DNA from: an uncultured Nitrososphaeria archaeon
GTDB taxonomy: Archaea; Thermoproteota; Nitrososphaeria; Geothermarchaeales; JDFR-13
Assembly: GCA_964437705.1 (NCBI GenBank)
Contig: CAYTHX010000003.1
Span: forward strand, 65,229 to 129,228
Length of the DNA: 64,000 nucleotides
Reading direction: 5' to 3'
Position 1 is the stretch's first letter. Each line of letters begins with the position of its first letter. The notes under the pieces were generated by a model. It did no database searches and had not been told where the DNA came from. It saw nothing but the letters and a program-made list of their open reading frames with translations. Position numbers and translations under genes: made by a program. Of the stretch, positions 7,190 to 64,000 are shown piece after piece.

Positions 7190-7735
7190 TTGAGAATGAT
7201 AAAGATAATATTAACTGGATTCCCAGGGATTGGGAAAACAACTGCAATACAAAAAATAAATGACTATCTAAAGTTTAGGGGTGTAAAAACTGGAGGATTT
7301 ATAACATTTGAAGAAAGGAAGAATGGTAAAAGAATAGGCTTTAAAATTGTGGATATTTCATCGTTGAAAGAAGATTGGTTAGCTCATGTTTCTTTATTCG
7401 ATGGACCACAAATTGGAAAATATAAAGTAAATGTAAAAGCTGTAGATGATATTGGCGTGAAGGCTGTTTTGAAAGCACTTAAAGAAGCTGATGTAGTGCT
7501 TATCGACGAAGTAGGTCCTATGGAAATGAAAAGTGAAAAATTCAGAGAAGTATTAAAATTAGCTATGCAGAGTGATAAGCCGGTAGTTATTACCTTACAT
7601 AGAAGTTACGTAAATTCAGGACTATCAGAATTGAATACAGACAAGGAAACTATAGTCTTTCGAATAAGCCAAACTAATCGTGAGGCTATACCACTAGTCG
7701 TCTCACGCGAAATACTACGGAGGCTAAAAACTTGA
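7190..7735 (+). CDS. Nucleoside-triphosphatase, THEP1 family.
   Basis: P-loop ILTGFPGIGKTT. 181 aa, typical size. Confidence 0.6.
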   Translation: MRMIKIILTGFPGIGKTTAIQKINDYLKFRGVKTGGFITFEERKNGKRIGFKIVDISSLKEDWLAHVSLFDGPQIGKYKVNVKAVDDIGVKAVLKALKEADVVLIDEVGPMEMKSEKFREVLKLAMQSDKPVVITLHRSYVNSGLSELNTDKETIVFRISQTNREAIPLVVSREILRRLKT

Positions 7736-18997: not shown

Positions 18998-19105
18998 TGG
19001 GGCCGGTGGGATTTGAACCCACGACCGCCAGCGAACTGTAGATGGAATACTTCCCCAGGTTCGCCGGTCACCTCTGGCGTCCTAGCCAAGCTAGACCACG
19101 GCCCC
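18998..19105 (-). tRNA. tRNA gene with ~35-40 nt of intervening sequence. The isotype is unresolved.
   Basis: Minus-strand acceptor GGGGCCG/CGGCCCC, D-arm GTCT-AGCTTGGCTA-GGAC, T-arm GTGGG-TTCAAAT-CCCAC, discriminator A. The anticodon region is interrupted and cannot be resolved by eye. It contains nested complementary segments GCCAG/CTGGC and CGAAC/GTTCG around a Pro-like loop CTGGGGA. Confidence 0.7.
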
Positions 19106-28395: not shown

Positions 28396-28497
28396 TGGTG
28401 GACCGGGTGGGAATCGAACCCACGACCCCCCGCATGCCAAGCGGGTGTTTTAGGGTTGGGGCCATCCCCAACCTCTCTACCGCTGAGCTACCGGCCC
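28396..28497 (-). tRNA. tRNA-Ala (GGC) with a 27-nt intron at the D-stem/position-26 boundary. CCA is encoded.
   Basis: Acceptor GGGCCGG/CCGGTCC carrying the G3:U70 Ala identity pair. Contiguous anticodon arm CCCGC-TTGGCAT-GCGGG. T-arm GTGGG-TTCGATT-CCCAC. D-stem GCTC...GAG|C split by AGGTTGGGGATGGCCCCAACCCTAAAA. Confidence 0.8.
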
Positions 28498-42907: not shown

Positions 42908-43041
42908 TGGGTTGGGGAAGCGGCCATAGGGCCGGGGAAACACCCGGTCCCATTCCGAACCCGGAAGTTAAGCCCGGCCACGCCGGGGACTAGCAGGGTG
43001 CGGGAGCCCCTGTGAACCCCCGGTGCTGCTTCCCCAACCCA
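42908..43041 (+). rRNA. rrf: 5S ribosomal RNA (solitary, not linked to 16S/23S).
   Basis: GC-rich. Terminal helix GGGTTGGGGAAGC/GCTTCCCCAACCC. Internal CCGAACCCGGAAGTTAAGCC loop C/helix III consensus. TATA-like AAAATTAAAATATAG about 25 nt upstream. Confidence 0.9.
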
Positions 43042-56065: not shown

Positions 56066-57550
56066 ATGAGGAAGAGAAGGGGACAAGCTAAGATTATGTA
56101 TATTGCTATCTTAATTGTAGGTATCATTATTGGCGGTGTAATAGGTTACGTCTTAGCTCCTGCTAAGACGCCTGAAGAAGTCCAAGATATCATGTCGGAG
56201 AATGAAGAGTTAAAAAGCAAAATCACTCAACTACTTGAGAAGCTGGGTAAGAAGGAAATCACGATTACCATTTGGACAATAGGTCCTGATCCACCATCAG
56301 AATATAGGTACAAGAACTTTGAGATTGCAGCTAATATGCTGAACTCATGGCTTGAGAAGATGGGGTCGAACGTAACTATAAAGGTAACTGGAGAGTTTTT
56401 CGTAAGACCTGTGGAGTGGGGAGAGTATAAGAATAAGTTTTACTTAGCGTTTAAGGCTGGTGAAGCTCCAGATATATACCTAACTGGACATGAGGATATC
56501 GGATTCCTAGCAGCAAACGACTATATAATTCCACTAGATAACTATGTTAAGGAGTACTGGGACGTCATATACTATGACGTTATACCAACACTATGGGACG
56601 CAGTTAAGTACAAAGGAAAGATTTGGGGTGTACCACAGGATACAGAGGCTAGACCACTATACTTCAGAAAAGACATACTAAGAAAACTTGGCTGGAGTGA
56701 ACAAGAGATTAATGAGCTACCAAAGAAGATCGAGAGAGGAGAATTCACTCTACAAGATCTACTCGGGGTCGCTAAGGAAGCTGTTGATAAAGGACTTGTT
56801 GAAAGAGGAATTCTACATAGAGTTAAGGAGGGATATGACTACTTCCAATTCTACTTAGCATACGGAGGTAAGCTCTGGAACCCAGAAACTGGAAAAATGG
56901 TATTTTCAAAAGAAGCTTGGAAAAAGACTCTAAAATGGTTCTACGATGCAGTATGGGTATACAAAGTTATTAGCCCGAATCAGTTTAGTGGCGACTGGGA
57001 TAAGGACTTCCACGGACCATTTACATCTGGTGAAGCACTATTCTTATCTGGAGGAACATGGCACAAAGGCGAGTGGATTCAGAAAGGACTATTAACTGAG
57101 GAATCATTTAAGGAGAATATAGGATATGCTCTACATCCAGCTGGAGAACCAGGCATGAGTCCAGTAACACTAAGTCACCCATTAGTATATACAATAACTA
57201 AGCAGGCTGAAGAGAGAGGAGTAGCAGATATATGCTTCATACTAATAACACTAGTTACAGACCCACACATAAACTCATACCACTCAGTTCAGAGCGCCCA
57301 TCTAGCAATACTCTATAGCCAAATCTCAGACTCCAGGTACACTCAGGATTGGTTCTTAAAGGACGTAGCATATATGCTAAAGTACACAACATTCATACCT
57401 AACCACCCTAAGTGGGGAGACTACAGTAGAATAGTATTTAATGTATTGAGAGCTGTTGAGAGCGGGGAGTTGACACCGGACGAAGCATATAATGTACTAT
57501 TAAGTGAAATTCAAAATACATTAGGAGACGATGTCGAGATTGTATCCTAA
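56066..57550 (+). CDS. ABC transporter solute-binding protein (sugar type, family 1), membrane-anchored.
   Basis: N-terminal TM anchor then a ~450-aa SBP domain. First gene of the SBP-permease-permease cluster. Confidence 0.7.
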   Translation: MRKRRGQAKIMYIAILIVGIIIGGVIGYVLAPAKTPEEVQDIMSENEELKSKITQLLEKLGKKEITITIWTIGPDPPSEYRYKNFEIAANMLNSWLEKMGSNVTIKVTGEFFVRPVEWGEYKNKFYLAFKAGEAPDIYLTGHEDIGFLAANDYIIPLDNYVKEYWDVIYYDVIPTLWDAVKYKGKIWGVPQDTEARPLYFRKDILRKLGWSEQEINELPKKIERGEFTLQDLLGVAKEAVDKGLVERGILHRVKEGYDYFQFYLAYGGKLWNPETGKMVFSKEAWKKTLKWFYDAVWVYKVISPNQFSGDWDKDFHGPFTSGEALFLSGGTWHKGEWIQKGLLTEESFKENIGYALHPAGEPGMSPVTLSHPLVYTITKQAEERGVADICFILITLVTDPHINSYHSVQSAHLAILYSQISDSRYTQDWFLKDVAYMLKYTTFIPNHPKWGDYSRIVFNVLRAVESGELTPDEAYNVLLSEIQNTLGDDVEIVS

Positions 57551-57580
57551 ATTACTCCCCAACCCTATTTTTATTTTTGT

Positions 57581-58507
57581 GTGAATGATATGAGAAAAGG
57601 ATTAGCAAAAATTAGGAAAGGATATTTATTAGTATTCCTAGTACCAAGTTTAACAATAATTGTTATATTCTTCCTAGTACCTGTAGTTTTAACATTTCTA
57701 ATAGGATTAACAAATATGGATTACTCATTTAAATGGAACTGGATAGGATTAGCAAATTATTTATACATTCTTAAAGATAGATGGGCTGCAAAAATTCTCG
57801 GAAATACCCTATTTTACGTCTTTACTACACTTATATGCTTTAACGTCGGAATGGCTTTATTCATATCAATCGCCACAACACATATAAACGAAAAAATAGG
57901 GTCTGCATTTAGAACTATATGGCTTCTACCTAGAATTACACCCTCAACCGTATATGCTCTCTTATGGCTATGGGCTTGTAGAAGAGAGGGGTATAGCTTA
58001 TTTAACTGGATATTATCAGCATTTGGGTTTCCACCTATAGATTGGAAACTCTCAAACCCATGGCTAATAGTCATACTAGTAAATGGATTTATAGGTACAA
58101 GCTTTGGAATGATAATATTCACCGCAGCGTTGAAAAGCATTCCAGAAGACTATATTAAAGCAGCTAAAGTTGACGGTGCATCAACACTACAAATTATTAG
58201 ACACATAGAGCTACCTCTAATCAAATGGCCAATAATGTTCGTAACTGCGTATCAAACGCTCTCACTTTTAACAAGCTATGAGTATATACTTCTCGTTACT
58301 GATGGGGGGCCGGGCCTCTATACAACTGAGGTTTGGGCATTATACTCATACCACTTAGCATTCGCCCAATATGGTGGAATAGTGAAATTTGGATACGGTG
58401 CTGCTTTAGCGACAATCCTAGTTATAATAGGGCTTATAATGTCGGTACTCTACTGGAAGATGTTTAAGTTTAGAGAGCTTATGCTCGAGCCTAAAATCGA
58501 GGTGTAG
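57581..58507 (+). CDS. ABC transporter permease (MalF/UgpA-like).
   Basis: Six TM helices with an EAA-like loop (IKAAKVDGAS). Confidence 0.8.
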   Translation: MNDMRKGLAKIRKGYLLVFLVPSLTIIVIFFLVPVVLTFLIGLTNMDYSFKWNWIGLANYLYILKDRWAAKILGNTLFYVFTTLICFNVGMALFISIATTHINEKIGSAFRTIWLLPRITPSTVYALLWLWACRREGYSLFNWILSAFGFPPIDWKLSNPWLIVILVNGFIGTSFGMIIFTAALKSIPEDYIKAAKVDGASTLQIIRHIELPLIKWPIMFVTAYQTLSLLTSYEYILLVTDGGPGLYTTEVWALYSYHLAFAQYGGIVKFGYGAALATILVIIGLIMSVLYWKMFKFRELMLEPKIEV

Positions 58508-58510
58508 ACC

Positions 58511-59377
58511 ATGAATAAGCGCGTGATAGTTTCGAAAATTAAGGACCTCCCAATATATGTAATACTAGTAATAGTTACAATACCGATAATCCTACTCTAC
58601 TTAATGTTATTCCTAAATAGCATATCAACAAAACTATATGGTTTAATACCAGAAAACATAACATTAGAAAACTGGTTCTTCCTTAGCAGCGGTAATATCA
58701 AAGTTCCCGGAACAGCTACTCAGTATTATCCAAACGTATACCTAGTTGCAGCAAACACATTTACACTAGCTATAATCATAGCATTCTTAGAAGTAATATT
58801 CTCCTCACTAGCTGGATATGCACTTTCGAGATACAAGTTTAAGGGAAGGGAAGGAATATTAACACTAACAATGATACTACATGCATTTCCAGGTATAACA
58901 CTTCTAATAGCACTATTCTACGTCTTAAATGCACTAAAGCTCTATAACACGCTAATAGGCGTAGTTATAGTTAAGGTTGCACTCGACCTCCCCCTAGGAA
59001 TATGGATCATGAAGGGCTTCTTCGATGGTATACCGTGGGATATAGAGATGTCTGCGCTAGTCGATGGATGTGGTAGGCTACAAGCCTGGTGGAAAATTAT
59101 CATGCCAAACGTTAGAAATGGATTAATGGCTGTACTAATATTCGGATTCCTATCTGGATGGGGAGAATTCATATACGTACTTACATTTATAGCTTCACAA
59201 GAGTACTGGACATTCAGCATGCTAGTATACGCCTTAACAACTGGAGAATACTCATACATAAACCCCGGAGTAACAGCTACAGTAGCAATACTATACATGA
59301 TACCAATAGTGATATTCTTCTTATTCGCCCAGCAATACCTACTTAGAATACAAATTGCAGGTAAAAGTACAGTTTAA
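58511..59377 (+). CDS. ABC transporter permease (MalG/UgpE-like).
   Basis: Six TM helices. EAA-like motif region (EMSALVDGCG). Confidence 0.8.
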   Translation: MNKRVIVSKIKDLPIYVILVIVTIPIILLYLMLFLNSISTKLYGLIPENITLENWFFLSSGNIKVPGTATQYYPNVYLVAANTFTLAIIIAFLEVIFSSLAGYALSRYKFKGREGILTLTMILHAFPGITLLIALFYVLNALKLYNTLIGVVIVKVALDLPLGIWIMKGFFDGIPWDIEMSALVDGCGRLQAWWKIIMPNVRNGLMAVLIFGFLSGWGEFIYVLTFIASQEYWTFSMLVYALTTGEYSYINPGVTATVAILYMIPIVIFFLFAQQYLLRIQIAGKSTV

Positions 59378-59405
59378 CATTATTCCAGCTAAAAAATTTT
59401 TTTAA

Positions 59406-60521
59406 CTAAAAGAAGGCTTTACCACTACTCTTATCAAATAAATGAATTTTATCCATCATAAAGCTAATATTTATAGTATCACCTTCATTAACCTCCTGTT
59501 CACCAGGAACTACAGCATTAAGCATAATCCCTCCAACACTAATATGCACAATCTTATCCCTACCCAGAGGCTCAACTATATATACATTTCCACTATACTC
59601 ACCTTCACCAACAATTATATGCTCAGGTCTAACTCCAAGTATAACCTCGCCACTAGCACTTAACTCCTTAAGAAGCTTGCTCTGATCAGCTAGAAGAGGT
59701 ATAGATATCTCACCAATATCTACGTAGGCTTTCTCGCCATCCCACCTCAGCGACCCATCAATAAGGTTCATAGGAACACTTCCTATGAACCCAGCTACAA
59801 ATGTATTTGCAGGCTTATTGTAGAGTTCGGATGGCGTTGCATACTGCTGAAGCTGACCACGATTAAGAACAGCAATTCTATCAGCCATAGTCATAGCCTC
59901 AACCTGATCATGGGTAACATAGATAGTAGTTATCCCAAGATCCTTCTGCATCTTCTTTAACTCAGCCCTCATCTGAACACGAAGCTTAGCATCAAGATTA
60001 GATAGAGGCTCGTCCATGAGGAAGAGCTGAGGCTCCTTAACTAGCGCCCTAGCTAGCGCAACCCTCTGCTGCTGACCACCACTAAGCTGTGCAGGCTTCC
60101 TATTAAGAAGCTCCGCAATATTAAGAAGCTTCGCTACACGCCTAACCTTCTCCTCAATCTCCTGCCTAGGCCGCTTCTTAAGCTTAAGCGGAAACGCAAT
60201 ATTATCAAACACGGTCATATGCGGGTACAACGCATAACTTTGGAAAACCATACCAATATTCCTATCCTTAGGAGGAATATCATTCATCAAAATATCATCA
60301 AAATATATGTAACCACTACTAGGCCTATAGATACCAGCAATCATTAGCAAAGTAGTGGTCTTCCCACAGCCAGAAGGGCCAAGCAAAGCAATAAATTCAC
60401 TATCACGAATCTCCAAATTAAGATTATCAACAGCCTTCACACGCCCAAAGTACTTAGTCAAATTAACAAGCCTAACACTCACCATACCCAAACCACCAGA
60501 AAAACAAAAAGGGAAAACCAC
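59406..60521 (-). CDS. ABC transporter ATP-binding protein (MalK-like) with C-terminal TOBE-like domain.
   Basis: Walker A GPSGCGKTT. Signature LSGGQQQRVALARAL. Walker B LFLMDEP. H-loop TTIYVTHD. Confidence 0.9.
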   Translation of the reverse strand: MVFPFCFSGGLGMVSVRLVNLTKYFGRVKAVDNLNLEIRDSEFIALLGPSGCGKTTTLLMIAGIYRPSSGYIYFDDILMNDIPPKDRNIGMVFQSYALYPHMTVFDNIAFPLKLKKRPRQEIEEKVRRVAKLLNIAELLNRKPAQLSGGQQQRVALARALVKEPQLFLMDEPLSNLDAKLRVQMRAELKKMQKDLGITTIYVTHDQVEAMTMADRIAVLNRGQLQQYATPSELYNKPANTFVAGFIGSVPMNLIDGSLRWDGEKAYVDIGEISIPLLADQSKLLKELSASGEVILGVRPEHIIVGEGEYSGNVYIVEPLGRDKIVHISVGGIMLNAVVPGEQEVNEGDTINISFMMDKIHLFDKSSGKAFF

Positions 60522-60925
60522 AGCCAGAAAAACAAGAAGCCCTAAAAATAAATAGAAAACACCTAATAAAAAACAATTTACTTATAAACACAAAACATAA
60601 TATCCAGAATACATAATATTCTTTGAGAAGTAGGATGGGAAATTGAAGGTCATAAATAAAGGGAGAATTAGGAAAAATTGGAGAATATTCATAAAGAAAG
60701 GCTCAATAAAATATATACGCAGAAAACCAAGAGCCGCACAAGGGCTACGTTGGATATAACCATAAAAATTCGACTATCAAACCTTCTGAGAGAAAAACAA
60801 AAACCACAGAGAAAATACAAGAATTAAAACCAGAAATAAGTTTTACTCTACATTAGCTCGTAAAATACCTTTTATTTTCGCTATAGTAACTTGAGTTACA
60901 GTTAATTAATAATTTTCTAGCATAA

Positions 60926-61726
60926 TTGCGTTTGTTGGTGCAATATATGAAGCCTGGACTATCAAGGCTAGCAGTTATTTTCATAGTAACGGTACTACTA
61001 GGAGTAATATTTGGAATGGTATGTCAAATATCAGGATTATTCTCAACAACGGAAGATGAAACGTCATCAATTATCGCAAACCTAAACTTCATCCTTAACG
61101 TTGGTGAACCAATCTACATCGAGAAATTAGAGTTTGAATCAATATGGCCAGGACAAACCGGAACAATGAAAATTACTCTCAAAAACCTAGCCTCAGTCAA
61201 CTATACAGTCCACATCAAGAATAAGGGGTTAATAGCTCCAAATAAAAAAGCAATAGTAATCGATTTTGAACCAGTATCGATAAACTTACTAGCTTACGCA
61301 GAAACAACTATCGATGTACCATTTAAAGTTAAAAGCGGAGCACCCATCGGAGTATACGAAATAGTAATAGCAATATACAGAGGGAAAGACATAAACAACG
61401 CACTACTCATAACAGAAATACACCTAGTAGGATATGTCGGTGGAGAACCAATACAAGTCAGAGCCGTAACCCTACCATCACTATGGCCAGGATCCTCAGG
61501 AATAATCACCCTAGACATCGAAAACATATCAGACATCCCATACAACATATCCATATCCCTAAAAGACGTCACAGGACCAAACGGCAAAAGCAACCACATA
61601 ACCCTAAACGGAGGAATATATCTAATAAAAGGCAAAGCATACACACAAATAGATGTACCAGTCACACTATCAGACAACGCACCAGTAGGAACCTACACAA
61701 TCAGCATCAACATAAAACGAACATAA
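60926..61726 (+). CDS. Secreted/membrane-anchored protein with two tandem beta-rich repeats, hypothetical.
   Basis: N-terminal TM/signal. Two ~90-aa repeats (LW/WPG...G.ITL.I.N.S...Y...I). Confidence 0.4.
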   Translation: MRLLVQYMKPGLSRLAVIFIVTVLLGVIFGMVCQISGLFSTTEDETSSIIANLNFILNVGEPIYIEKLEFESIWPGQTGTMKITLKNLASVNYTVHIKNKGLIAPNKKAIVIDFEPVSINLLAYAETTIDVPFKVKSGAPIGVYEIVIAIYRGKDINNALLITEIHLVGYVGGEPIQVRAVTLPSLWPGSSGIITLDIENISDIPYNISISLKDVTGPNGKSNHITLNGGIYLIKGKAYTQIDVPVTLSDNAPVGTYTISINIKRT

Positions 61727-61973
61727 CACAACAAAACCATAAAATAACTATCCTAACACAGCAAAATCTAAAGCATAATGAGTATAATTCTCAACACCTA
61801 ACCAAATAATCCTCATAAAAATTTAAAGTCCCATTTCCTAGAAAAAGGAGTATTACAAACTAACTAATCAGATATTGGTAAAAACGAAATGTAGTTATTA
61901 TCGTGATATGATAAGTATAGTAATTTCGAGAAGCTAAAGGAAAACCTTTGGAGAAAAGGTTGTTGGTGGTGGG

Positions 61974-63122
61974 CTAAAACTCTACATCTAGTAGCTTTAT
62001 CCATACTTGATTTAACAAGGTATTAGAGTACTGTGTAATTCCAAATGTTCTTACAATCACGCTTGGTAATACATACGTCATATCAAGCAATGCCCCTACA
62101 CTTAAATAGAGAAGAAGACCGGTCTTCCTATCATATGCTACTGAAAGCAAATCAGGAAAGCCTATCGATACATATTCCTTACCATCATATAACACTCCTC
62201 TAATATACTCAGTAACATTTAACTGGAAATCACACTCCCTACACAAATTAATTGAATAATTATACTCTACCAATGAATGCACATACTCCCATGACTTATA
62301 ACTCAAATCAATAGAACTCAAGAAAACACGATCATCATGTACAATTAACTTACCATCCTTATACTTAAACAACGGTTTTATAGCTATACGCTGCCTATAT
62401 AGACATGAACAATTAGATAAAACCTGAATTACCCTTTTTACATCTCCCTCAGACACTGGATAAATAATAGAGCTAAATGGCAACATAGACTTATTACTAT
62501 AAATCTGGCGATTAGCAGGAATCACTTTACCACTAGACATACGAAAGTCTCTATCAGCAGTATTTGAGGAGTTAAGGAGGATAAGGGTCGCCTGACCATT
62601 AATCCTTTTAGATGGATACTCGACAACATGAGTATCCGCCAGACTATAAAGCAAAAGAGTACACTCCTGCTTCAAGTCATTTTGACTAAGCCAAAATACC
62701 CACTCTCCAACTTTCCTCCCACTTTCATCAACAGTTTCTCCACTACATAAGTCGACAGTAACAATTCTAGACATAATTAACTTATTAAATACTGATAGGT
62801 AATAATCACCCTTATTACTCCAAGAACTATCAATCTTAGGCTTAGGTGAATACTCTTTACCCATCTTAGCAATACCGTCAGTAAAAGTAAGAGTAACATT
62901 CACTTTAGCACAATCATCTCTACGATCCACAACACAAATATCAATATACAACCTATTGAAAGCGATAACCAGAGCCTTTCCCTTATCCAAAGATGGATTC
63001 TCACTAAAATCGCGTAAATACTCCCAATAATCCCTATAAAGCAACATCGCAAAATAAGCTCTCTTTTCTTTAACTATATCCTGATAATTCGAAAAATACT
63101 CGTTGCAGGTAGAACCATCCAC
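61974..63122 (-). CDS. Hypothetical protein, possibly the frameshifted continuation of the 63074..63292 signal-peptide ORF.
   Basis: ORF only. The upstream overlapping ORF encodes a hydrophobic N-terminal segment in another frame. Confidence 0.3.
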   Translation of the reverse strand: MDGSTCNEYFSNYQDIVKEKRAYFAMLLYRDYWEYLRDFSENPSLDKGKALVIAFNRLYIDICVVDRRDDCAKVNVTLTFTDGIAKMGKEYSPKPKIDSSWSNKGDYYLSVFNKLIMSRIVTVDLCSGETVDESGRKVGEWVFWLSQNDLKQECTLLLYSLADTHVVEYPSKRINGQATLILLNSSNTADRDFRMSSGKVIPANRQIYSNKSMLPFSSIIYPVSEGDVKRVIQVLSNCSCLYRQRIAIKPLFKYKDGKLIVHDDRVFLSSIDLSYKSWEYVHSLVEYNYSINLCRECDFQLNVTEYIRGVLYDGKEYVSIGFPDLLSVAYDRKTGLLLYLSVGALLDMTYVLPSVIVRTFGITQYSNTLLNQVWIKLLDVEF

Positions 63123-63384
63123 TGAGGAAGATTATCCCCAGCAACACTAACCTCATACCTCAAATGAAGACCAGAAACGATAAAACCAGAATATACCACA
63201 CTCGGAAAACTAATCATAGAAACTAGAGAAACAGCAAGAAGAACAGCGATCACAACACAAATACACTTTAATACTCGCAACCCACCACCCACTTAAAAAC
63301 CGCAAAAAAGAAAACATAAATATTCCTAAAAACAAAAATAACATATAACACATTATAGACACACGACATACTATTCTTTAGGAA

Positions 63385-63993
63385 TTGCCTGAAGCAAAAT
63401 ACAGCAAAGTATACTATGCTCACCCAACATTTACATACGGCACACTATGCGAAAAAAGAGCACTAGAAATAATCTCACAAACATTCCCAGAAGCTAAAAT
63501 CGTAAACCCAGCAGACTACCAATTCATTACACACGGAGGAGGAATGGAAATATTCTACATGCTACTCGATACATGCGACGCCATAGTCTACACAGAAATC
63601 TCCGGATTCGTAACAGCAGGAGTAGCCAACGAAATCAAAAGAGCACTAGAACAAGGAAAAGACGTCTACAAACTAGACTGGAGAACAGGAGAAATCACTA
63701 AAATAAACAAACCACCCAAAAACACCCTAGACATACAAACAACAAAACTACTCCAAAAAACACTCTACACACAAAACATAGACGACACAGAACTCGAACA
63801 AAAAAATAAACACAAAAATCAAAGAACTAGGCGAAATCATAGACAGAAAAACAGCACTACAACTCATAGCAAAACAAACAAAACCACAAAAACCAAAACC
63901 AAACATAAAAATAGACCCAATAAGCCGACACTACCACTGGTGGCAAGAACCGAAATATGCACAAATCCCGGTAGACAACGAGAAAATAACTAG
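63385..63993 (+). CDS. Hypothetical protein. The 3' part is low-complexity and an alternative frame stays open to the window end.
   Basis: The N-terminal 110 aa look globular. A different frame carries a protein-like sequence ending ...HWWQEPKYAQIPVDNEKITRLI, which runs to the window edge. Confidence 0.25.
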   Translation: MPEAKYSKVYYAHPTFTYGTLCEKRALEIISQTFPEAKIVNPADYQFITHGGGMEIFYMLLDTCDAIVYTEISGFVTAGVANEIKRALEQGKDVYKLDWRTGEITKINKPPKNTLDIQTTKLLQKTLYTQNIDDTELEQKNKHKNQRTRRNHRQKNSTTTHSKTNKTTKTKTKHKNRPNKPTLPLVARTEICTNPGRQRENN

Positions 63994-64000
63994 ATTAATT

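Follow-up and report, generated by a model that had tools for sequence, protein, structure and literature searches.

The right end of the window, the whole 64,000-nucleotide stretch that was analysed, carries a sugar ABC transporter cassette, two ORFans and the start of a further open reading frame, here called ORF-A (Table 1). The host is a thermophilic archaeon; its closest genome is a Geothermarchaeota MAG, and the attribution to Sulfolobales in an earlier, sequence-only reading was wrong. The MalK gene has its real start at the ATG at 60485 and, as that reading had described, is written in codons ending in T or G, whereas those of the oppositely oriented 259-aa ORFan end in A or C. An orthologue of the MalK gene in L007 is unskewed. 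A search for a Pfam family gave none for the 259-aa ORFan, and the 435-aa ORFan is without a Pfam, plasmid or phage match.

Table 1. Features at the right end of the window. AC3 is the A/C fraction at third codon positions, always written in + strand letters.
Feature	Coordinates	Strand	Remarks
Sugar ABC substrate-binding protein (SBP)	56066..57550	+	Pfam SBP_bac_1/8; AC3 0.55; faint start of ramp
ABC permease 1	57581..58507	+	Pfam BPD_transp_1; AC3 0.59; on ramp
ABC permease 2	58511..59377	+	AC3 0.69 (z = 3.6); contains change point 58546
Strand-asymmetry domain, part in window	58546..64000		~5.5 kb, left part of whole domain
MalK-type ABC ATPase	59406..60485	−	Pfam ABC_tran, OB_MalK; AC3 0.81, bins up to 0.90
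Intergenic, strongly A+C rich	60486..60840		A+C 0.77–0.82 at 60421–60600, 0.70 at 60721–60840
Unskewed islet at promoter and start of 259-aa ORFan	60841..60960		A+C 0.42–0.43
ORFan, 259 aa, signal/anchor	60947..61726 (ORF from 60926)	+	AC3 0.81; 0.90–0.98 over 61321–61618
Second unskewed islet, between convergent ORFs	61861..61980		A+C 0.45–0.47
ORFan, 435 aa when intact	61974..63280 (ORF 61974–63122 here)	−	AC3 0.73
Start of ORF-A, ~575 aa	63385..64000 (ORF 63385–63993 here), extending past the window end as far as position ~65.2 kb	+	AC3 0.84

Two frame disruptions that had been suspected are both real. The 435-aa ORFan is split at ~63105 and is read through to its full 435 aa in haplotype L001, and ORF-A is frame-shifted at an A7 run (63800–63806; tblastn changes frame at ~63803). 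Full-length homologues of ORF-A exist (P0128 and P0129), and it combines a nucleoside-deoxyribosyltransferase-like domain at the N-terminus with a LAGLIDADG-like domain after it. The top Foldseek match is the homing endonuclease I-Tsp061I (E = 2.4e-4), with deoxyribosyltransferases matching too. ORF-A is thus predicted to contain a LAGLIDADG-like fold and is a pseudogene in the host species.

Over positions 1–56 kb, the A+C content of the + strand per kb is 0.510 (sd 0.018, range 0.471–0.554). In the final four kb it amounts to 0.608, 0.624, 0.595 and 0.709 (z = 5.6, 6.5, 4.8 and 11.3), so that the strong bias claimed near the window end is real, as are the scarcity of G in 59521–59640 (nine counted) and the A/C-rich final stretch (A+C of ~0.8 over the last 340 nt). 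AC3 has a mean of 0.519 in the 56 genes upstream of 56 kb (sd 0.046, maximum 0.66; 0.50 for + genes and 0.53 for − genes) and lies between 0.69 and 0.84 in each gene between ~58.5 kb and the window end, with 0.90–0.98 reached in some 50-codon bins. Third positions past 59406 are A/C in 967 of 1225 cases (binomial p = 1.5e-85), and a single gene among 863 from 80 other loci has an AC3 of at least 0.72.

The bias resides in silent and intergenic sites. Codon positions 1 and 2 in the domain have an A+C content of 0.42–0.56, except in the decaying ORF-A (0.66–0.67), and the conserved proteins are intact despite the bias at silent sites. Intergenic A+C is 0.638 compared with a baseline of 0.514. 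At silent sites, A/(A+G) rises from 0.74 to 0.88 and C/(C+T) from 0.29 to 0.66. The gain in A approximately equals the loss of G and the gain in C the loss of T, and the shift therefore fits transitions, with G>A and T>C as the direction on the + strand. Since genes in both orientations and intergenic DNA are affected, while codon positions 1 and 2 remain at ~0.5 in conserved genes, the bias is mutational and does not reflect codon selection, a view already proposed from the letters alone.

The onset is a patchy ramp, faint from ~56.5–57.3 kb and reaching a plateau from ~59.4 kb; the SBP gene already has a silent-site C/(C+T) of 0.41, compared with 0.29 at baseline. The best single change point in the silent-site series is located at 58546, where A/C goes from 0.524 to 0.773 (LLR 185). 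This corrects the earlier placement of a strong change at ~57 kb. The unskewed islet at 60841–60960 may be a constrained or recent segment. The domain also continues beyond 64000, a correction of its earlier extent: overlapping metagenome contigs place its right end at about codon 63 of rtcB, a core gene for an RNA ligase, ~2.8 kb beyond the window end, giving a whole domain of ~8 kb. The 57 kb to its left are flat and unskewed, and to the right of rtcB A/C is back to 0.5 or below (~1.4 kb known here and 10 kb in the relative L091), so that this is not ordinary replichore skew. Next to rtcB, an archaeal chromosome thus contains a tract of ~8 kb in which nearly all silent sites have turned to A/C on one strand; our literature search did not find a locus-anchored one-strand mutation process of this kind described.

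rtcB itself carries the same skew, and four more lineages (L091, L094, L096 and L097), with RtcB proteins that are 72–88% identical, have it at this position too. The cargo genes beside rtcB differ among the skewed lineages, but the skew pattern is common to them. L091 has PIN/VapBC cargo, with a ramp from 0.5 to 0.6–0.73 over ~7 kb and a flip inside rtcB, and its baseline is ~0.53 to the left and ~0.45 to the right of rtcB over 10 kb each. L094, L096 and L097 share this pattern in rtcB, where its boundary lies at codons ~63–80, and have in common a patch at codons ~400–450 of which both edges are sharp. In L097 the pattern extends over an intein within rtcB; this syntenic relative is without the ABC cassette and the ORFans, in agreement with the view that the block is strain-variable accessory cargo. 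The relatives L093 and L095 lack both the skew pattern and LAGLIDADG-type neighbour genes. The domain thus looks anchored at rtcB and not bound to gene content. Because rtcB and the L097 intein are skewed and the pattern recurs in four lineages with different cargo, the bias appears to be generated in place. A still sharper intragenic switch occurs in L032 (Thermofilaceae), where the SBP gene passes from ~92% A/C to ~85% G/T at one codon and no endonuclease gene is detectable.

LAGLIDADG-type genes accompany the skew pattern. A LAGLIDADG_3 gene (Pfam E = 1.2e-12) adjoins rtcB on its upstream side, and a relic copy of rtcB residues 154–183 lies between the two. On the downstream side, four of the five skewed lineages have ORF-A, either as a gene or in pseudogene form (looked for and not detected in L094), and in one lineage, L097, the rtcB intein is present as well. 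The locus also varies between strains: three haplotypes exist from 63862 to rtcB, SNP density at 62–63.9 kb is raised ~10-fold (12 changes toward A/C versus 5 away), and all assemblies break within the domain. The rtcB alleles differ by strand-coordinated clusters of silent changes, and allelic tracts reach 14% silent divergence within flanks that differ by ~1–2%. In one 200-nt rtcB tract, 24 of the 28 differences are G>A or T>C. Third positions hold 27 of the 28, which excludes a single mutational event for this tract.

Tentatively, we favour an in situ process at a homing-endonuclease hotspot that would repeatedly leave the − strand single-stranded or resynthesised, followed by purifying selection. 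Deamination of single-stranded DNA is rapid in a thermophile. A local and long-lasting process at rtcB would bring C>T and A>G changes to the − strand, equal to G>A and T>C on the + strand. Purifying selection would purge hits that change amino acids and so keep the proteins, silent and intergenic sites would drift toward about 80–98% A/C, and inter-strain recombination would mix converted with unconverted tracts, giving a mosaic. The likeliest driver would be recurrent breakage or nicking at a hotspot formed by ORF-A downstream of rtcB, the LAGLIDADG_3 gene upstream and, in a relative, the rtcB intein, with repair synthesis running leftwards through ORF-A and the cargo such that the − strand would be newly made or single-stranded. 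The observed polarity is in keeping with a strand that extends away from the site and is freshly synthesised or displaced. Several points argue against this driver. The 4–9-fold asymmetry over background (locally >20-fold) needs an event nearly every generation, a far higher rate than is expected of homing. Simple deamination of resected 3′ tails would give the opposite sign. In the host species ORF-A, with its putative endonuclease role, is a pseudogene, and the rtcB boundary at codons ~63–80 does not match the known intein site Cys98. The abrupt edges of the codon 400–450 patch look more like recombination junctions than gradients, and L032 and L094 are exceptions to the endonuclease link.

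These abrupt edges, together with the allelic tracts, would be easier to understand if the island and the MalK and rtcB tracts had been imported, through horizontal transfer or through gene conversion, from a replicon of very strong strand asymmetry. A plasmid or virus with rolling-circle or strand-displacement replication could be such a donor, and recombination with resident alleles would then have left the mosaic of ramp and patches. The accessory, strain-variable cargo, the presence of the ABC cassette in different contexts in other archaea and the L032 switch, which implies that both allele types exist, point the same way. We nevertheless consider such an import unlikely. Silent sites must be mutually saturated among the five lineages with the rtcB-anchored pattern, implying that the state is regenerated in place, and cargo varies by lineage while skew does not. 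No donor turned up with an AC3 close to 0.9 or 0.1 (L009 and L013, averaging 0.35–0.38, were the most skewed loci), and searches found no integrase, att site or repeat, or tRNA, and no plasmid, phage or IMG/VR match. Hence the sequence-only interpretation holds for a mutational, non-replichore bias and accessory cargo; its imported history with an integrated element or foreign segment is not supported, in view of the same skew in core rtcB and the L097 intein, its recurrence beside different cargo and the negative searches.

Transcription is a further candidate. The non-template strand of transcribed DNA gains G+T, and G-rich non-template strands favour R-loops. Leftward rtcB transcription with read-through, plus that of MalK and the 435-aa ORF, could form RNA:DNA hybrids that expose the non-template − strand to heat deamination, its G-richness reinforcing the hybrids. 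rtcB, its intein, MalK and the 435-aa ORF are indeed − strand genes with a G+T-rich sense strand, the bias begins ~190–240 nt into rtcB and decays downstream over kilobases, and action in every generation matches the required intensity. Yet the bias in permease 2, the 259-aa ORF and ORF-A runs counter to the direction in which these + strand genes are transcribed, so that antisense read-through would have to dominate across 8 kb. In addition, the islets and the codon 400–450 patch are left unaccounted for, the polarity flips mid-gene in L032, and rtcB of L093 and L095 is unskewed. We therefore regard this route as improbable. It is similarly doubtful that replication starts from an origin or initiation zone at or beside the 5′ end of rtcB, where the amino-to-keto polarity would be a classical origin jump and a long-lived, strand-displaced (D-loop-like) state on the left would produce a mitochondrion-like gradient. 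Such an origin would operate every generation, and it agrees with the polarity, the L091 baselines on either side of rtcB and a gradient that declines with distance, as in vertebrate mtDNA (PMC3269012). Against it, the switch lies inside a coding sequence and rtcB holds several of them, the available flanks contain no Orc1/Cdc6 gene or ORB-like repeat array, the right flank is only weakly biased, and the effect fades within a few kb instead of being replichore-wide. Codon- or mRNA-level selection and artefacts of sequencing or assembly have nothing beyond protein conservation in their favour and are effectively refuted already, as intergenic DNA is equally biased, favoured codon endings invert with gene orientation, six independent assemblies (ENA, JGI and Logan) give identical sequence, and damage would also hit first and second codon positions.

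Among known systems, vertebrate mtDNA shows a heavy/light-strand asymmetry gradient that falls with distance (reviewed in PMC3269012). It resembles the rtcB domain in the G>A and T>C changes on one strand, equal to deamination of C and A on the other, in an orientation-independent third-position bias, here of comparable or greater size, and in a gradient chiefly in the T/C ratio. It differs in that the domain is ~8 kb of an archaeal chromosome and not a whole replicon, is patchy with intragenic switches, and gives no evidence of strand-displacement replication, which in mtDNA leaves the deaminated strand single-stranded. Skew jumps at origins (bacterial oriC; mammalian S-jumps and N-domains) share the A+C-rich left and G+T-rich or neutral right side and the independence of gene orientation, but here the jump is several-fold larger, extends over kilobases and not a replichore, and switches within rtcB, and origin hallmarks were not found in the available flanks. 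Transcription-associated asymmetry and R-loop GC skew are alike in the G+T-rich non-template strand of rtcB, MalK and the 435-aa ORF and in the decay downstream of a start point; unlike them, the bias here opposes the sense strand of the genes on the other strand, and several genes in convergent and divergent arrangement lie within the domain. Homing-endonuclease genes and mobile introns create hotspots of diversity and co-conversion around them (PMC5378118). LAGLIDADG-type genes flanking the target gene, presence/absence polymorphism, the relic duplication of the host gene and raised local diversity all recur here, although our literature search found no report of kilobase-scale, directional, strand-specific rewriting of silent sites at such loci. 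Kataegis and break-induced replication clusters share the same-strand runs of transitions and a proposed tie to long single-stranded repair intermediates, but are single-event clusters, whereas the changes at rtcB are fixed, selection-filtered and silent, and have accumulated over evolutionary time.

The plus strand of the window is compositionally flat over 1–56 kb, with an A+C content per kilobase of 0.510 (s.d. 0.018). The last four kilobases have values of 0.608, 0.624, 0.595 and 0.709, corresponding to z = 5.6 to 11.3. Third codon positions were taken from non-overlapping ORFs and scored in plus-strand letters. The resulting A/C fraction (AC3) averages 0.519 (s.d. 0.046) for the 56 genes before 56 kb (0.50 for plus-strand and 0.53 for minus-strand genes), and the background from 863 genes at 80 unrelated loci is 0.49 (s.d. 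0.062; 99.5th percentile 0.66). Near the window end the AC3 values are 0.69–0.84 both for minus-strand genes (MalK and the 435 aa ORF) and for plus-strand genes (permease 2, the 259 aa ORF and ORF-A, the gene that crosses the window end). The A+C enrichment and its independence of gene orientation, both proposed in the sequence-only reading, are thus borne out. That reading placed the start at about 57 kb. The bias itself stands, but its onset is a patchy ramp that is faint from ∼56.5 kb, with the best-fitting single change point at 58546 (LLR 185), and the coordinate is softer than was claimed.

Past position 59406, 967 of 1225 third positions are A or C (p = 1.5e-85). Within the domain, which continues to about codon 63 of rtcB, ∼2.8 kb past the window end, A/C reaches 0.90–0.98 in 50-codon bins, and G or T is nearly absent from silent sites over long runs. 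Codon positions one and two remain at ∼0.5 in the window genes, the last ORF being the exception. Intergenic A+C is 0.638 in the domain versus 0.514 outside it, with stretches of 0.77–0.82. Two unskewed islets of ∼120 nt each are found inside the domain.

Coordinates of features in the window and in related contigs
Feature	Contig	Coordinates	Strand	AC3	Remarks
tRNA gene	window	18998–19105	−		108 nt; Rfam, missed by ARAGORN; probably intron-containing
tRNA gene	window	28399–28497	−		99 nt; Rfam, missed by ARAGORN; probably intron-containing
5S rRNA gene	window	42916–43034	+		lone gene; 102 bits
Ribosomal protein operon, then methyltransferase genes	window	49.4–55.8 kb			S19, L2, L23, L4, L3; syntenic with JGI contig L097
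Sugar ABC cassette	window	56066–60485			SBP, permease 1, permease 2, MalK
SBP	window		+	0.55	
Permease 1	window		+	0.59	
Permease 2	window		+	0.69	
MalK	window	59406–60521	−	0.81	longest ORF, opening at GTG 60521; ATG 60485 gives the product called in all assemblies
259 aa ORF	window		+	0.81	
382 aa ORF	window		−	0.73	435 aa when intact
Unskewed islet	window	60841–60960			at promoter and gene start
Unskewed islet	window	61861–61980			between convergent ORFs
Last ORF (start of ORF-A)	window	from 63385	+	0.84	
A7 run in ORF-A	window	63800–63806			site of frameshift
LAGLIDADG_3 gene	L092	155–1105			upstream of rtcB
Relic copy of rtcB residues 154–183	L092	1147–1236			30 codons
rtcB with intein	L097	12543–15398			
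SBP gene	L032	6592–8088			codon-ending switch at nt 7360
Non-coding insert	L032	8089–8961			870 nt; between SBP and permease gene

Compared with the normal genes of the window, A gains in the domain about as much as G loses, and C about as much as T loses. The ratio A/(A+G) rises from 0.74 to 0.88 at silent purine sites, and C/(C+T) rises from 0.29 to 0.66 at silent pyrimidine sites. Of the two components, T>C is the first to emerge along the ramp, with C/(C+T) already at 0.41 in SBP. As in mitochondrial-type deamination, G>A and T>C are over-represented at the silent sites of one strand, which is the mark that C>T and A>G changes leave when they occur in the minus strand. Judged from base composition, the minus strand would mutate ∼4–9 times faster than the plus strand, and more than 20 times faster in the most extreme tracts. 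In MalK some A>T is also seen relative to the orthologue in the related contig L007, at saturated sites. A polarised substitution spectrum was attempted using the ABC-cassette orthologues of L007, L008, L009, L013 and L016 as outgroups. With the silent sites saturated, not enough changes can be polarised, the sole hint coming from SBP (19 G>A and 9 T>C versus 3 A>G and 4 C>T). The loci of L009, L013 and L016 (Geothermarchaeota MAGs; 7–16 kb) are themselves uniformly G+T rich at silent sites of one strand in either gene orientation, with a mean AC3 of 0.35–0.38 and values of 0.23–0.27 for SufB and SufC; this looks like a strong ordinary replichore skew of that group.

The protein sequences are preserved. 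MalK is a full-length ORF of 359 aa with ABC_tran and OB_MalK matches and is 75% identical to the L007 orthologue. Because the amino-acid sequences are kept, the changes were built up singly under purifying selection. A single-event hypermutation burst is ruled out, as the changes are nearly all at third positions.

The right-hand boundary of the domain lies within rtcB. In the window species codons 1–63 of this gene are A/C-ending in the sense strand, while codons ∼64–400 are mostly G/T-ending, equivalent to A/C on the plus strand of the window. Codons ∼400–450 form an A/C-ending patch and the final ∼33 codons are G/T-ending again. This layout recurs in four further lineages. In L091 (rtcB 88% identical at the amino-acid level), rtcB lies beside PIN/VapBC genes and a pseudogene of ORF-A. 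There, A+C climbs from 0.5 to 0.6–0.73 over ∼7 kb and then flips inside rtcB, the right flank staying at 0.39–0.50 for 10 kb. The same rtcB layout is found in L094 (73%) and in L096 (72%), the latter having both ORF-A and a LAGLIDADG_3 gene. The fourth, L097, shares synteny with the window over the stretch that begins at the ribosomal operon and ends with ORF-A and rtcB, but the ABC cassette is missing and other cargo takes its place between the ribosomal region and ORF-A. Two relatives, L093 (71%) and L095 (74%), have neither endonuclease-like neighbours nor the skew pattern. Since silent sites of rtcB are saturated between lineages with 72–88% protein identity, the shared pattern would have been regenerated locally in each of them and not inherited or imported. 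The recurrence of near-saturating skew across such lineages also indicates a process at rtcB that acts on one strand alone and outpaces background mutation several-fold there.

The ORFs of the island could not be assigned to a family by Pfam or PDB sequence searches, and ORF-A was placed by fold search only. It comprises ∼575 aa in relatives and is frame-shifted in the window. The structure model of its homologue P0128 has a mean pLDDT of 65.5 (72–92 in the C-terminal half). Foldseek matches this model to the archaeal homing endonuclease I-Tsp061I (E = 2.4e-4) as well as to other LAGLIDADG enzymes, and its N-terminal domain to nucleoside 2'-deoxyribosyltransferases. With one significant Foldseek match and a moderate-confidence model, a LAGLIDADG-like fold is predicted for ORF-A. 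The LAGLIDADG_3 gene of the window species (E = 1.2e-12) is separated from the intact rtcB by the relic rtcB copy, in which 26 of 30 residues are identical; a further protein, P0122, matches LAGLIDADG_3 at 2.6e-11. In L097 rtcB contains a 466 aa intein with LAGLIDADG motifs, inserted before Cys98, that is itself G/T-ending like its host gene. The insertion site was considered as the exact domain boundary and rejected, the boundary being at codons ∼63–80. The locus thus has a LAGLIDADG gene adjoining or inside a conserved host gene together with presence/absence polymorphism and raised diversity, as in a homing-endonuclease hotspot.

This polymorphism is seen within the population of the window organism. 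Between 63862 and rtcB at least three haplotypes exist, containing the C-terminal half of ORF-A (the window and L088), an unrelated, unskewed insert (L001 and L090) or a deletion (L089). The window and L001 differ by 20 substitutions in 62.0–63.9 kb and by 16 in 49.4–62.0 kb, an ∼8–10-fold higher density per kilobase in the former, and these SNPs lean 12 to 5 towards A/C in L001. Six independent metagenome contigs are 99.7–100% identical to the window and all stop inside the skewed region. All assemblies of the window organism and one relative (L001–L006, L088, L089 and L094) break in or at the edge of the domain, at differing positions (61278, 61518, 61778, 62263, 64294 and others), which probably reflects micro-diversity and haplotype variation. 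The JGI contig L088 adds 1.6 kb past the window and reaches the 3' end of rtcB on the minus strand. The last 23 nt of L006 (Logan SRR7051322), in window orientation, are a Nextera adapter (CTGTCTCTTATACACATCT), an assembly contaminant.

Two rtcB alleles of this population (L001 and L089) are 94.6% identical, with their differences arranged in strand-coordinated clusters. One tract of 200 nt contains 28 differences, of which 24 are G>A or T>C changes and 27 affect third positions. A neighbouring tract shows ten successive differences in the opposite direction, while the flanks differ by only 1–2%. The patch edges are abrupt. From the allele sequences, the simplest reading of this fine structure is recombination between differently converted alleles. 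The same phenomenon is seen around the same ABC cassette in L032, a contig of an unrelated Thermofilaceae MAG, where MalK has an AC3 of 0.84 and codon endings in the SBP gene change from ∼92% A/C to ∼85% G/T. Either natural recombination or a chimeric assembly of two alleles could have produced this switch. An endonuclease homologue was not detected in L032.

The mutational signature, its ramp-like onset, its anchoring at rtcB and its disregard of gene orientation would all be accounted for by a process acting locally, in which the minus strand is exposed or made anew. As its cause we tentatively rank first, at less than even confidence, endonuclease-linked breaks or nicks. These would arise at a putative rtcB hotspot, after which repair synthesis would head leftward through ORF-A and the cargo. 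The polarity demands that the newly made or displaced strand, and not the resected tail, would carry the changes; a break on the right whose resected 3' tails became deaminated would give the wrong polarity. Such breaks agree with the presence of LAGLIDADG-type genes and an intein alongside the skew, with the leftover piece of rtcB, with the haplotype polymorphism and with boundaries that lie inside genes. The event frequency that is needed and the distance of the boundary from the known intein site are difficulties.

An imported history, in which already skewed DNA was acquired, is unlikely. It still accounts for the abrupt mosaics and for L032, but the pattern is anchored at rtcB in lineages with different cargo. 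Nor is the atypical composition confined to acquired DNA, the core gene rtcB being skewed in five lineages, as is its intein in L097. The related proposal of an integrated or accessory element holds in so far as the ABC cassette and both ORFans are absent from the syntenic L097. Against it, the left border is a ramp, no tRNA, att or Rfam elements were found near the domain or at its borders, and no integrase families occur among its ORFs. Virus and plasmid signals are equally absent: a scan of IMG/VR with ORF-A and a tblastn search of plasmids and phages with the 435 aa ORFan gave no match. An attribution to Sulfolobales was mistaken, as permease 2 has its closest genome match, at 84% amino-acid identity, in a MAG of Candidatus Scotarchaeum (Geothermarchaeota), where the orthologous ABC cassette is unskewed. 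The remaining matches are archaea of deep-sea or subsurface hydrothermal sites.

Less probable again are R-loops from leftward transcription, which would act in each generation and fit the minus-strand genes, where the sense strand is G+T rich. The opposite is found in permease 2, the 259 aa ORF and ORF-A, and antisense read-through across three plus-strand genes would be required. A replication origin or initiation zone at rtcB is given the same low rank. Its polarity fits, as does a small baseline shift in L091, but there are several switches within rtcB and, in the flanks covered, the hallmarks are not seen. Gene lists and repeat scans of L091, L092, L094 and L096, which for the window species reach ∼1.4 kb past rtcB on its right side, revealed no Orc1/Cdc6 gene, ORB repeats or AT-rich unwinding element. 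When the upstream regions of rtcB from three lineages were compared for origin-like repeats, only the conserved ribosome-binding region proved to be common to them. Silent-site bias regardless of gene orientation, a trait of replichore skew, is present in the domain; ordinary replichore skew is refuted by the flat 1–56 kb, by a bias that sets in only from ∼58.5 kb and by its fading within ∼7 kb in L091. Codon selection is refuted by the bias in intergenic DNA and in genes on either strand, and a sequencing or assembly artefact is likewise refuted.

Were the process identified, it would bring to light a DNA transaction of uncultured thermophilic archaea for which there is no current assay, the candidates being R-loops, an initiation zone and the repair of breaks made at a homing-endonuclease site. 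Its identification would also provide a purely computational marker for such sites in metagenomes. Such domains break assemblies and can mislead predictors of codon usage, horizontal transfer and origins. A more general, doubtful proposal is that thermophilic archaeal chromosomes contain 'skew islands', where a homing-endonuclease locus, as a selfish element, would repeatedly bring about repair synthesis in one direction or the exposure of single strands, and in the course of evolution would thereby rewrite nearly all silent sites of its neighbours on one strand. If so, a kilobase-scale footprint would show where breaks occur and in which direction they are repaired, and mobile elements would have a new way to reshape host gene sequences with the proteins unchanged. 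In full-text literature searches we found general reviews only, and no account of an archaeal chromosomal locus where silent sites are rewritten on one strand over kilobases and almost to saturation.

Both the chemistry and the gradient of the rtcB domain resemble the asymmetry of vertebrate mtDNA, where a monotonic gradient reflects how long a strand stays single during strand-displacement replication; the ramp seen here is patchy. The polarity is like that of replication-origin jumps, and the setting is like that of co-conversion hotspots at mobile introns (PMC5378118). The rtcB domain is local and near-saturating, involving up to 98% of silent sites, and has intragenic switch points. In this it differs from the usual mutational strand asymmetry, which is weak and replicon-wide and is used for finding origins.
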